Source of the DNA: a virus
UHGV virus genome: UHGV-0170512
Direction: 5' to 3' (one strand)
DNA: 11,320 nt
The position numbers and the translations under genes are program-made. How positions within the stretch are numbered: the first letter of the stretch is position 1; every line of letters begins with the position of its first letter. The notes beneath the pieces were generated by a model, which saw only the letters and a program-made list of their open reading frames with translations, was not told the DNA's origin and did not search any database. Positions 4,511-10,789 of this stretch are shown piece by piece.

Positions 4511-4869
4511 TTATGATGATGCCGGTGCATTTATCTCCAGCGCCAGACTTTCTATCTCAACGCCATACGTTGCATTTTTGGTAATATCCGTCAGCGTCAG
4601 TGCATTTAGTCCCACTGCCAGACTGTCTTTTATGGCCTGGAATGCCGGGCCAGTACGATGACGTAGTATCACTCCGGCTCAGTTGCACCACTGACCACCA
4701 CATCACCTTCTGCTGCAATCGCCTGCATCAGGGTATAAGGGGTTATGGCCACCGGACTACCAAACGGCTGCCAGCCCTCTTTCAGTTTATGTGTCAGCTT
4801 TTCCGCAAGATCTGACGGCGGCGCCGCCCTGACAACATCATAGTGTTTAAATGCCATGGTTCTTTCCAC
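4511..4869 (-). pseudogene. DUF1737-like gene (NanS-p N-terminal-domain-like), apparently frameshifted/truncated
   Basis: Track ORF 4669..4869 (66 aa, MERTMAFKHYDVVRAAPPSDLAEKL...) stops at 4669-4671; a second stop-free frame of 55 codons ([55 protein letters not shown]) opens just after a stop at 4679-4681 and runs to 4511, overlapping the first frame in 4669-4678. Consistent with a single indel. The first Met may be the third residue (MAFKHYDVV). Confidence 0.35.
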
Positions 4870-5117: not shown

Positions 5118-5453
5118 ATGAAGTGGATTGTGATTGATACAGTTATCCAGCCATCATGCGGAATATCTTTTTCAGTCATATGGAGTAAAATAAAATTAAT
5201 AATCTGGTATCAATCGGATGCTTTCTTACCTCCTGAAAGTATATTTACACTGACTCACACAGGCATCATGCTCAATAACAAAGTGCTACCTGTAACCATT
5301 TACAACGTAGTACCATTCAATAAAACATTCTGGAATTTAATCAAAAACAGCCAGGAATGCCCTACAAATACAGATAACGTATTGAATGAATGCTTTAATA
5401 ACCGTTGCACTCTGCAAATATGTCCTTATGGACTAAAACAACAAAGTCCATAA
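5118..5453 (+). CDS. Hypothetical 111-aa protein, AT-rich convergent moron ORF
   Basis: Only credible plus-strand ORF in the window. Strong SD AAGGAA 7 nt upstream of the ATG at 5118, preceded by a ~250 bp very AT-rich stretch (4870-5117). Visibly lower GC than the phage backbone; 5 Cys; no recognisable family. Confidence 0.45.
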
Positions 5454-5487
5454 GGAGTTTACTCACATCTGACAAAATCAATATAAA

Positions 5488-5509
5488 CAGCCCCTCCGGA
5501 GAGGGGCTG
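5488..5509 (-). terminator. GC hairpin, likely Rho-independent terminator for minus-strand transcription (possibly also stops the convergent plus-strand ORF)
   Basis: CAGCCCCTC-CGGA-GAGGGGCTG, 9-bp perfect stem; on the minus strand it is followed by TTTATATTGATTTTG. On the plus strand it sits 35 nt after the 5118..5453 stop but has no U-tract. Confidence 0.4.
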
Positions 5510-5900
5510 GAGAGTGGCGCTATGTGCCATTGCATGGTGCCGGGTGCCTCCCGGTGAATTCAGTACCAGCACCTGAATCCGCGATTATCCCATATACCTA
5601 CTCGCTGATTGCCCCTCCGCACAGGGGGATTCACCATGCCAGTTTCTTTTAACAAACTCCCCGCAAACCAGACAACAGTCAACCGCCTGAATTGTGAAGT
5701 ATTTAAAAATTTCTCCCGCTAACTGATACCCGGCTAACAGTCTGGCGTTTTCTTTTTCAGCAACGGAAAAGCAACAACCACCACACCTGCCACCAGCACA
5801 CCGTCAGCCAGCACTGACATTATCCGGCTGCTGCAATGCCATTCACAAAAACAGTAAGCAATCACTTTTTACCGTAACAGGTGATAATCCAGATATGTAT

Positions 5901-6227
5901 CTACCCCAGATGAGTAATCCGAAGTTCATCCATACCACAGGTCCTGGCTATTCTGTTGTACTCCTGAACAAGAGCAAATAATTCTGAATTAGCAACCATG
6001 AACTCATCGCTAACCCTCTGTATAGCATCACTATTCAGAATAATAACGTCTCTTCCCGAAAGACGATCAGGAGTACAAAACAAAACTGTCAAACGGCTGA
6101 AGGCCTTTGCTCGTGCTGCATTGACTATATCAATACGCTGCCTAAGGATGAAACACCCCGACGCCTCATCAATATTCACTCTACCCACACCATATGAATG
6201 ATAAATATTTAATGCTGAAAAAACCAT
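5901..6227 (-). CDS. Hypothetical protein (108 aa from the internal ATG); doubtful
   Basis: Track ORF 5901..6254 starts at TTG; the first ATG is at 6227-6225 (MVFSALNIYH...) with a weak SD. No recognisable motifs; immediately downstream of the tRNA cluster. Confidence 0.25.
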   Translation of the reverse strand: MVFSALNIYHSYGVGRVNIDEASGCFILRQRIDIVNAARAKAFSRLTVLFCTPDRLSGRDVIILNSDAIQRVSDEFMVANSELFALVQEYNRIARTCGMDELRITHLG

Positions 6228-6364
6228 TAGACCGTATAACAAACACTCAATCAATACTTAACAGAACTTTTATTTTTGACAAACATATAATATTTTCAAC
6301 AATATCCTGAGCCAGGTATATTCCAGTATAAGGCTCTGCCGGAAGGAATCTGGAAGAATGAATA

Positions 6365-6441
6365 TGGCGCGTTGTACTGGATTCGAACCACTGACCGATT
6401 GCTTAGAAGGCAATTGCTCTGTCCTGCTGAGCTAACAACGC
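6365..6441 (-). tRNA. tRNA-Arg (anticodon UCU)
   Basis: Minus strand GCGTTGTTAGCTCAGCAGGACAGAGCAATTGCCTTCTAAGCAATCGGTCAGTGGTTCGAATCCAGTACAACGCGCCA: 7-bp acceptor stem, D arm GCTC/GAGC, anticodon loop CTTCTAA, T loop TTCGAAT, encoded CCA. One G:G mismatch in the T stem. Confidence 0.8.
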
Positions 6442-6454
6442 AGAATACCGATAA

Positions 6455-6531
6455 TGGACCACCATCGGGGACCCGAACTCCGCGCAACCAGCTTCGAAAG
6501 CTGGCGCTCTTTCCTGATGAGCTAATGGCGG
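6455..6531 (-). tRNA. tRNA-Arg (anticodon UCG)
   Basis: Minus strand CCGCCATTAGCTCATCAGGAAAGAGCGCCAGCTTTCGAAGCTGGTTGCGCGGAGTTCGGGTCCCCGATGGTGGTCCA: acceptor stem with one G:U pair, perfect anticodon stem CCAGC/GCTGG, loop TTTCGAA, encoded CCA. Non-canonical T loop TTCGGGT (G at position 58) and one A:C mismatch in the T stem. Confidence 0.7.
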
Positions 6532-6538
6532 TATGTGA

Positions 6539-6614
6539 TGGTGGCCCTTGCTGGATTTGAACCAGCGACCTGGCGATTATGAGTCGCTCGCTCTCACCAC
6601 TGAGCTAAAGGGCC
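6539..6614 (-). tRNA. tRNA with CAU anticodon (Ile2-type, ileX-like, or Met)
   Basis: Minus strand GGCCCTTTAGCTCAGTGGTGAGAGCGAGCGACTCATAATCGCCAGGTCGCTGGTTCAAATCCAGCAAGGGCCACCA: perfect acceptor and T stems, anticodon loop CTCATAA; closely resembles the E. coli ileX tRNA as I recall it. Confidence 0.85.
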
Positions 6615-6736: not shown

Positions 6737-7456
6737 TTAACGAACTCTGACTACATTAATTTCAAAGTCATCAATCTGCCCGCTATTAAGTATAACGAAT
6801 GCAGAACTCCCATTACTGTACGATTTCGATAAAACCAGACGATCATCATAGCGTGCAAGAACGTAATACCAAGTATTCTCATAGTGGATCGTCTGATATT
6901 CCCTCTTAAACTGGGGTTTATACCAACCGGCAATAAGAGAGAATGTCCAGAAATAAATCATGAATCCAGCCATAATAAACTCAATTCGGTGATGGCGAAT
7001 AAAAGACACTTCCGAAAAACATTTGACTGAAATAAGTCTTCTTCCTGACCTGACAAAAAGCGTAATTGTAAAGGCAGCAATAACACAAAAAAACAGCACA
7101 TCTGGCTCAACGTGCTGATGAATTACCGAAAACTCCAGAACAGGCGGAATAAAAAGCAGCAATATTGCCAGAAAAAGTCTGATAAAACTCAAATTCTGTA
7201 TATTGTTTTTTTGTTTTATGCCTAAAAAGAAAACAATACCTACTCCCCATCCAGTAAGGAATATAACGATAACGCTCACAGCATAAAACAAACTTCGGGC
7301 CACATCATCAACGCCAACCCCGACGATCCACCATGGAAAGCCATAGTAAAAGGAAGTCCCCCATCCATAGAAATAAGCGCTTCCCCATCCAAGACAGCCC
7401 ATATAAGCAATAAAAAGTGAAGAGTTCCTCAGCAGAGTGCTGTCATCCATACCCAT
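6737..7456 (-). CDS. Uncharacterised polytopic membrane protein (about 5 predicted TM helices plus ~60-aa C-terminal soluble tail)
   Basis: 239-aa ORF, first gene after the tR'-like terminator. Successive hydrophobic, aromatic-rich segments (FIAYMGCLGWGSAYFYGWG..., LFYAVSVIVIFLTGWGVGIVFFLGI, FIRLFLAILLLFIPPVLEF, VLFFCVIAAFTITLFV, IMAGFMIYFWTFSLIAGWY). Visibly AT-rich. Likely start is the second ATG (7450), with GAGAG 6 nt upstream. Confidence 0.6.
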   Translation of the reverse strand: MGMDDSTLLRNSSLFIAYMGCLGWGSAYFYGWGTSFYYGFPWWIVGVGVDDVARSLFYAVSVIVIFLTGWGVGIVFFLGIKQKNNIQNLSFIRLFLAILLLFIPPVLEFSVIHQHVEPDVLFFCVIAAFTITLFVRSGRRLISVKCFSEVSFIRHHRIEFIMAGFMIYFWTFSLIAGWYKPQFKREYQTIHYENTWYYVLARYDDRLVLSKSYSNGSSAFVILNSGQIDDFEINVVRVR

Positions 7457-7695: not shown

Positions 7696-8517
7696 CTATC
7701 GCGTTACCCTCTTTAACTGCCGCTCCGCCCATGCCTCTTCAATGTCAAACCGAACCACCAACGTATCGTAAAAGCGTTTCACTGATTTTTTCCACGTATC
7801 AAGCGTGATAGCACTCGTCACTTTGCGTATGGCATTAAATGCCTCCGTTGATGGTAGTCTTTCATAGCCCCGACCGCCACAACGCTGGCAGTTCCTGATT
7901 ACAGGCATACCCCGTTTTTCCGACTCTTCACGATGAATGGCAACACCACGCCCACGGCAGTCTTTACAGGCAGTGGAAATCTCCCCCTTCCCTTTACATT
8001 CAGGACAAGAAACTTTCACCACCTCCCGGATTTTTTTCCATTCTTCCCAGTAAGACGGATACACACCTTTCGTACACTTTGCCCATACCGGCGGCTTACC
8101 ATCCGGATACTGGACCTTGTTTGTAAAAACTACGCTTTCAATAAATTTTTCCCCATAGCAACAAGGGCACTGCTTTTTACTCGCTGCGCTGCGGGCATAA
8201 TCCTCAAAAGCGTACGAAGCCATAATGCGCATCACTACCGGTTTTATTTCTGCCGGAAGTTTTCTTAACGCCGCCACGCGATCGCACTGACTTAATGCAT
8301 AATCTGCCAGTAATTCTGTTGCCCGCGCCCTGTCATTCATACTAATACCCATTTTCCCCAGGAACGCAGAAAATCCCATCTCAGCCCGGTTTTGTGTCAT
8401 ACCCTGCGCAGCCATCACATCAGTGATGCTCAGCGCATCTTTTGACGTCGAGACGGATGCATCAGTCAGGCCTGGCGATTTTGGGGAATAGTATTTCGGT
8501 AAATCTTCCAGTCTCAT
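7696..8517 (-). CDS. Q-like late antiterminator (QuuQ-type, zinc-finger Cys pairs)
   Basis: 273-aa ORF with several CxxC pairs (CPCC, CPEC, CKDC, CQRC); positioned after rusA and before a promoter-terminator pair and the lysis genes, the canonical Q position. ATG overlaps the rusA stop (ATGA). Confidence 0.6.
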   Translation of the reverse strand: MRLEDLPKYYSPKSPGLTDASVSTSKDALSITDVMAAQGMTQNRAEMGFSAFLGKMGISMNDRARATELLADYALSQCDRVAALRKLPAEIKPVVMRIMASYAFEDYARSAASKKQCPCCYGEKFIESVVFTNKVQYPDGKPPVWAKCTKGVYPSYWEEWKKIREVVKVSCPECKGKGEISTACKDCRGRGVAIHREESEKRGMPVIRNCQRCGGRGYERLPSTEAFNAIRKVTSAITLDTWKKSVKRFYDTLVVRFDIEEAWAERQLKRVTR

Positions 8518-10397: not shown

Positions 10398-10553
10398 TTA
10401 CTCCTCAGGTTCGTAAGCTGTGAAGACAGCGACCTCCGTCTGGCCGGTTCGGATTCGTACCTCGCAGAGGTCTTTCCTCGTTACCAGTGCCGTCACTATG
10501 ACGGTTAAACAGATGACGATCAGGGCGATTAACATCGCCTTTTGCTGCTTCAT
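10398..10553 (-). CDS. hok: Hok-family type I toxin (HokD/RelF-like), 51 aa
   Basis: Hand-translated, below the ORF-track size cutoff: MKQQKAMLIALIVICLTVIVTALVTRKDLCEVRIRTGQTEVAVFTAYEPEE. Single TM segment and Hok/Gef signature; SD AGGAGAAG 6 nt upstream of the ATG. Confidence 0.85.
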   Translation of the reverse strand: MKQQKAMLIALIVICLTVIVTALVTRKDLCEVRIRTGQTEVAVFTAYEPEE

Positions 10554-10789
10554 AGCCTGCTTCTCCTTGACCTTTCGGTCCGTAAGAGGCTAATCTCTAT
10601 GTGTCGCATAGATATGGCCTCAGATTAATGTTAAGCGTCTTGCAGGACGCGTAATGTTAACTGGGGCTTTTCTCTATCTGCCTTTTGGTGTTCATGCCTG
10701 AGGCAGATAGCCTCAAGCACCCGCAGCAATTCTACTTAACTCACGTCACCTCGCCAATATGAAATCAATCAGAAAGGTGATCCATAAAA

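Follow-up and report, generated by a model that had tools for sequence, protein, structure and literature searches.

A hydrophobic 28-codon reading frame in a lambdoid prophage is probably a non-functional relic of the DUF3927 gene tciB

Does a short hydrophobic open reading frame (ORF) in a prophage encode a toxin-like membrane peptide, or is it what remains of a gene that has been lost? The question is raised by a minus-strand ORF of 28 codons in an 11,320-nucleotide viral sequence (UHGV-0170512), the whole of which is referred to here as the window. A first-pass annotation had attributed to this ORF a single transmembrane helix, a polybasic tail and a weak ribosome-binding site, had likened it to type I toxins and small membrane peptides, and had considered its chance occurrence in GC-rich DNA plausible. 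A lambdoid prophage found in E. coli CFT073, among many other strains, matches the region with 100% identity, and the region shares its arrangement, at 99% identity, with the phage record mEp460_ev081. Here, we describe a comparative analysis of the ORF, its flanks and its homologues, and we present evidence that it is probably the still-open 3' half of a decayed tciB gene, a relic that no longer functions.

Translation of positions 5734-5820 yields MSVLADGVLVAGVVVVAFPLLKKKTPDC followed by a stop codon, and the ORF is therefore present exactly as first described. Its hydropathy profile contains one hydrophobic segment and then KKK, in agreement with the proposed helix and basic tail. The description of the DNA as GC-rich was mistaken, the GC content being 48.5% in the window and 51.7% in the ORF. 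The window contains 83 ATG-initiated ORFs of at least 28 codons versus 69 +/- 6 in shuffled sequences, and the length of the ORF is thus uninformative on its own. A chance ORF with no evolutionary coding history would accord with such common lengths and with the weak ribosome-binding site. It is refuted, however, by homology: the 28 residues alone match the Pfam family DUF3927 (PF13064) at E=7.3e-16, over profile positions 26-53 of 53 only; the nucleotide sequence of the ORF is almost identical to the 3' half of intact tciB; and the 113 database relatives, nearly all from E. coli or Shigella, all carry PF13064 and are labelled DUF3927. This homology raises the ORF above chance, an origin to which we attach practically no probability.

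In addition to the ATG at 5820, a GTG at 5865 opens a 43-codon ORF that ends at the same stop and cannot extend further because a TAA lies two codons upstream of this GTG. Residues 2-11 of the longer ORF (IAYCFCEWHC) represent the old helix-1 coding sequence read out of frame; the ancestral frame is regained at SSRIM, and GTG 5865 itself was an internal Val codon of the ancestral gene. The weak ribosome-binding site noted initially was confirmed for both starts, with calculated anti-Shine-Dalgarno duplex energies of -2.6 kcal/mol at ATG 5820 and -3.0 at GTG 5865 versus -6.4 at the native, coupled start of intact homologues. The features of the locus are collected in Table 1.

Table 1. Features in and around the 28-codon ORF, in window coordinates
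Feature	Position	Strand	Basis and remarks
28-codon ORF	5734..5820	minus	Corresponds to ancestral tciB codons Met30 to stop (second hydrophobic helix and KKK tail); translation, Pfam, alignment to intact 54-57-residue homologues
43-codon GTG-started ORF, same stop	5734..5865	minus	RefSeq "DUF3927 family protein" WP_000562553.1
Degraded tciB 5' part	5821..5878	minus	DNA alignments to intact loci L004, L005, L042 and L017
Surviving 3' end (~19 nt) of tciA (TerB-domain gene), otherwise lost	5875..5893	minus	Local alignment and Shine-Dalgarno energies
phrog_2873 ORF, function unknown, 117 codons	5901..6254	minus	PHROG, E=3.8e-69 over residues 10-117; in place of tciA
STnc100 sRNA	5479..5668	minus	Rfam RF02076, 132 bits (gathering score 47); right-hand slot boundary
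tRNA cluster: anticodon CAT (RefSeq tRNA-Ile), Arg(tcg), Arg(tct)	6365..6614	minus	ARAGORN, Rfam, RefSeq; left-hand slot boundary
iraM (anti-adapter protein)	5118..5453	plus	RefSeq; the L004 homologue carries the PmrD Pfam family

Intact members of the DUF3927 family are 50-57 residues long, with a VDFTSxxMSvxaDG motif set between two hydrophobic segments, and D24, S31 and D35 (numbering of protein P0056) are nearly invariant in an alignment of clusters. A profile search of 1.84 billion cluster representatives returned 112 clusters, mostly of 50-64 residues and covering the whole profile, and the database relatives fall into length classes of 28, 43 and 54-57 residues (for example, MTVKMRLAVVALLLFLVVMVVMVDFSSRIMSVLADGVLVAGVVVVAFPLLKKKASGD in the longest class). 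The ORF of the window retains S31 and D35; D24 is replaced, the sequence reading ...EWHCSSR..., and the full-length two-helix architecture is absent, with a single hydrophobic segment and true homology only from SSRIM onward. The 43-residue and 28-residue forms score 95.6 and 58.3 bits against PF13064 (gathering cut-off 25), a model that abundant truncated E. coli forms in the databases may have helped to shape. PHROG 1470, named "TciB-like", also matches the ORF, and an NCBIfam search with it returned nothing useful. The 54-residue TciB of phage P1 aligns with DUF3927 profile positions 1-53 at E=7e-31. The C-terminal 32 residues of the window ORF (SSRIMSVLADG...PLLKKK) can be aligned with this protein's second helix and family motif, but the window copy differs in having no first helix, no D24, no native start and Shine-Dalgarno sequence and no TerB gene upstream, and in carrying a stop in the ancestral frame. 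Judged by these alignments, the ORF is a remnant of the DUF3927 family and not an intact member, and the earlier likening to small membrane peptides was apt in that the ORF derives from a small-membrane-protein gene.

The names TciA and TciB come from the annotation of P1, where they were given "by homology". Searchable literature yielded annotation mentions only and no functional study of TciB, tciA or DUF3927, and PADLOC made no defence-system assignment for TciB, with TerB giving only a weak match (E=0.0035). A tblastn search of the phage collection with the intact 57-residue protein gave no match, probably as a result of low-complexity masking, and the iraM region of strain K-12 contains no DUF3927 remnant, the nearby ymgK and ymgL being unrelated. 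An AlphaFold2 model of an intact member, built from a 41-sequence alignment, is one continuous helix over residues 2-55 (pLDDT 89, pTM 0.43), a result that speaks neither for nor against a hairpin. Judged by the two hydrophobic segments and the basic residues that flank them, an N-in/C-in hairpin would be the favoured topology of TciB.

In the usual arrangement, the GTG start of intact tciB overlaps the TGA stop of tciA (GTGA), which encodes a TerB-domain protein of 143 residues. Because the GTG or ATG start of tciB overlaps or abuts the tciA stop, the pair is probably translationally coupled. A TerB gene lies directly upstream at all five loci fetched for the 57-residue protein, at 74 of 80 IMG/VR loci, the other six being of the window's truncated type without TerB, and in 11 of 13 species genomes, including Pseudescherichia, Buttiauxella, Rosenbergiella, Franconibacter, Enterobacter and Pantoea. 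The two exceptions among the species genomes (L217 and L219) have no TerB and carry degraded DUF3927 ORFs, and in P1 tciB directly follows tciA, with its TerB domain (L089, 25234-25930). Every intact locus examined therefore has TerB upstream (5/5, 74/74 and 11/11, plus P1). The linkage spans lambdoid prophages, P1-like phage-plasmids and several enterobacterial genera (loci L003-L007, L009-L088 and L210-L222), and tRNA genes are found near the pair in both the lambdoid and the P1 contexts. The pN/pS ratio of intact tciB is 0.41 and is equal in the N-terminal and C-terminal halves, indicating that the half lost from the window is constrained in functional copies. We infer that TciB is a small inner-membrane partner or anchor of the soluble TerB-domain protein TciA.

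The intact lambdoid cassette (L004 and L005, annotated in RefSeq as 'tellurite resistance TerB family protein' followed by 'DUF3927 family protein') occupies the same slot as the window ORF, flanked by the Q/tRNA cluster on one side and by STnc100, iraM and the lysis genes on the other, and window 5833-4700 is 92.7% identical to L004. By BLAST, homology to the intact loci spans window 5833-5481, breaks off upstream of it and begins again at 6352, within the tRNA cluster. The difference lies in window 5834-6351, which carries the phrog_2873 ORF in the place of TerB and the 5' end of intact tciB, and the window gene is accordingly preceded by this ORF and not by a TerB gene. The ORF at 5901-6254 was considered as a diverged TerB and rejected, having neither a Pfam TerB match nor BLASTP similarity to TerB. 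Its likely start, given that the profile match begins at residue 10, is ATG 6227 (108 codons); the RefSeq annotation of CFT073 has no CDS at 5901-6254.

Traces of the tciA-tciB junction are still recognizable. It reads CTGTTACGG in the window versus CTGTGACGG in the intact loci, with 24 of 28 positions identical over 5893-5866 and an alignment score of 36, compared with 14 +/- 2.4 (maximum 26) in 500 shuffles. Within it, the ancestral tciB start has changed from GTG to GTT (5878-5876), the tciA stop from TGA to TTA (5877-5875), and the tciB Shine-Dalgarno sequence, eight bases upstream, from GGAG to GGAT. The distance from the old start to the conserved AGCAGC (Ser-Ser) is 46 nt in the window versus 75 in the 57-codon allele, a net change of -29 nt that is spread over several small deletions in the 5' part of tciB, and a TGA (5845-5843) lies in the ancestral frame. 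By comparison with the intact loci, then, the window gene is disrupted: its start, one of its two helices, D24 and its partner gene are lost, and a frameshift is present.

As the ORF has lost its start, helix 1 and its partner gene, the likeliest account is that of an unremarkable gene remnant and not of a novel toxin. The likening to type I toxins in the first-pass annotation is not supported by this comparison: the ORF is the C-terminal half of a TerB-coupled TciB whose 5' half and partner gene have been destroyed. Among the curated families of Rfam, no antisense or antitoxin RNA overlaps the ORF locus, the nearest match being STnc100, which is co-directional and downstream, and a simple consensus scan of 5700-5900 found no promoter-like site on the opposite strand. 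A sigma-70-like site at 5848-5819 scored no better than chance, and a transcript from it would begin within the ORF. The window does contain a genuine type I pair on the minus strand, hokD at ~10462-10617 (L001 10563-10718) with sok RNA at 10551-10722 (Rfam, 108 bits). The ORF resembles hokD/sok and other type I toxins in encoding a short hydrophobic peptide with a charged tail in a prophage; it differs from them in having no antisense RNA or Rfam antitoxin at its locus and in its ancestry, which is a two-helix protein coupled to a TerB-domain gene and not a stand-alone toxin.

The remnant might nonetheless be translated into a single-helix membrane peptide of 28 or 43 residues with a retained or new function, either toxin-like or as a decoy against the TciA-TciB proteins of phages that share the cell or newly enter it. 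Situated on the strand of the late operon, beyond Q and the tRNAs in the downstream direction, the ORF is probably transcribed during induction, and the retention of S31 and D35 of the family motif would also be consistent with a functional peptide. Weighing on the other side are the weak Shine-Dalgarno sequences at both starts, the loss of helix 1, D24 and the TerB partner, and the absence of an antisense RNA in Rfam. Further evidence came from a DNA pattern scan specific to the truncated allele, which identified 120 IMG/VR loci, 104 of them with full flanks and used for substitution counts. None of the complete copies in these 120 loci has an interrupted 28-codon frame, as a translated peptide would lead one to expect. 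However, GTG 5865 is GTT in 7/104 of the full-flank copies (8/121 in a wider set) and ATG 5820 is ATA in 1/104; one copy has an in-frame 3-nt deletion. The truncated copies differ by no more than ~5% and almost all share the phrog_2873 flank, which indicates that they descend from one recent event, and since fewer than one stop-creating mutation is expected at this divergence, the open frame is uninformative either way.

The pattern of substitution argues in the same two directions. In the 104 copies, the ORF has accumulated 15 substitution events in 87 nt, or 17 per 100 nt, compared with 4-12 per 100 nt in the flanking segments except the outermost (6270-6171, at 18); this greater polymorphism than in most of the flanks counts against a functional peptide. 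The substitutions divide into 9 synonymous and 6 non-synonymous, a marginal excess over the expected synonymous fraction of 0.35 (one-sided P=0.04) that would favour translation, but six frames were examined, the P value fails after such testing, and the antisense frame likewise gives 9:6. Recombinational import of variants from intact genes was considered as a source of the excess; one of the 15 ORF variants is shared with the few close intact alleles compared, which does not demonstrate such import.

Variants in the protein database also count against a functional peptide: they include frame-shifted forms (P0021 and P0023) and a Leu4Pro form (P0050) that is present on 1000+ Shigella contigs, in addition to repeat-slipped forms (P0005, P0044, P0098 and P0102). 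The GTG/GTT-rich repeats that code for the helix (GVLVAG and VVM units, in the 5775-5800 region) expand and contract in frame among alleles (P0005, P0044, P0098, P0102 and P0094). These changes in repeat length suggest replication slippage, which may explain the raised polymorphism of the 5775-5800 region. The truncated arrangement is widespread, a further point in favour of a translated peptide: of 5426 complete E. coli genomes, 1184 match a 901-nt query over at least 80% of its length, compared with 737 of 5426 for the intact TerB-tciB pair at the same coverage and at megablast sensitivity. On balance, we regard a translated and functional remnant as unlikely. A more specific version, in which the orphaned helix-2 peptide of 28 or 43 residues is made on prophage induction and acts alone in the inner membrane, for example as a mildly toxic membrane-active peptide or as a dominant-negative decoy for the TciA-TciB modules that competing phages carry, is less likely again. 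If true, such activity would explain why, among complete E. coli genomes, carriers of the truncated allele outnumber those of the intact cassette.

The surroundings of the ORF bear on both its origin and a further alternative. The minus-strand order is hokD; DUF968, RusA and the Q antiterminator; IS200C; three tRNAs; an unannotated stretch; and the DUF3927 ORF, followed by iraM (plus strand), a DUF1737 pseudogene and holin/lysis genes. STnc100, which is co-directional with the ORF, begins 66 nt past its stop, and a terminator scan placed the hairpin at the end of the sRNA at 5509-5488; on the opposite strand, at window 5524-5649, RefSeq places a partial 'hypothetical protein' pseudogene. This proximity, together with the linkage of the ORF to STnc100 in both intact and truncated loci, would fit a role at the RNA level, with the sequence kept as a leader or promoter region of STnc100 and not for coding. 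Against it, Stx-converting phages share with the window only 5483-5713, that is, STnc100 without the ORF; the homology ends at 5713 and includes no tciB sequence, and in Stx2 phages STnc100 instead lies 75 nt after stx2B (PMC12370729). STnc100 is thus independent of the ORF. Moreover, the ORF segment is more variable than either the 5669-5733 spacer or STnc100, and we consider an RNA-level role very improbable.

On the loci compared here, the interval from the tRNAs to STnc100 is a cargo ('moron') slot that holds stx2AB, tciA-tciB or, in this prophage, phrog_2873 and the tciB relic. The stx2AB cassettes of Stx-converting phages have the same late-operon position and strand and the same STnc100 flank (PMC12370729), but their cargo is unrelated to the phrog_2873 ORF and tciB relic of the window. 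A 2026 preprint describes STnc100 as a prophage sRNA related to PasD and notes that the conserved gene neighbourhood of PasA and PasC includes TerB (doi 10.64898/2026.05.13.724894). An IS200C transposase gene (~6737-7456, minus strand) is inserted between Q (7696-8517) and the tRNAs, and terminator-like hairpins lie by Q at 7615-7596 and 7662-7646; the insertion may alter how the ORF and all other sequences downstream of it are transcribed late in the cycle. The window prophage also contains a second decayed cargo gene, the truncated DUF1737 pseudogene at 4672-4857 (minus strand), which is the N-terminal fragment of a nanS-p-type esterase gene (DUF1737-SASA); the intact loci L003-L007 carry this gene at its full length of 647-660 residues.

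The changes at the locus can be summarized as follows. A different cassette, carrying the phrog_2873 ORF, replaced tciA and left only ~19 nt of its 3' end; the start codon and Shine-Dalgarno sequence of tciB were mutated, and the small deletions destroyed the part coding for helix 1 and created the TGA. The remaining ORF can begin only at the internal Met (28 codons) or at the fortuitous GTG (43 codons). In the probable reading, that of a relic, such a remnant would have no function of its own and would persist between the retained tRNAs, STnc100 and iraM in a cassette spread widely by phage recombination.

The ORF of the window is already known, as a RefSeq-annotated relic of a known family. 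In E. coli and Shigella genomes, by the thousands, annotation pipelines call the truncated ORF a 'DUF3927 family protein' and leave its status as a fragment unmarked. The intact tciA(TerB)-tciB pair is strictly linked and resides in the late-operon cargo slot that holds the Shiga toxin genes in Stx phages, and it is this intact pair, not the remnant, that is the sensible target for experiments.
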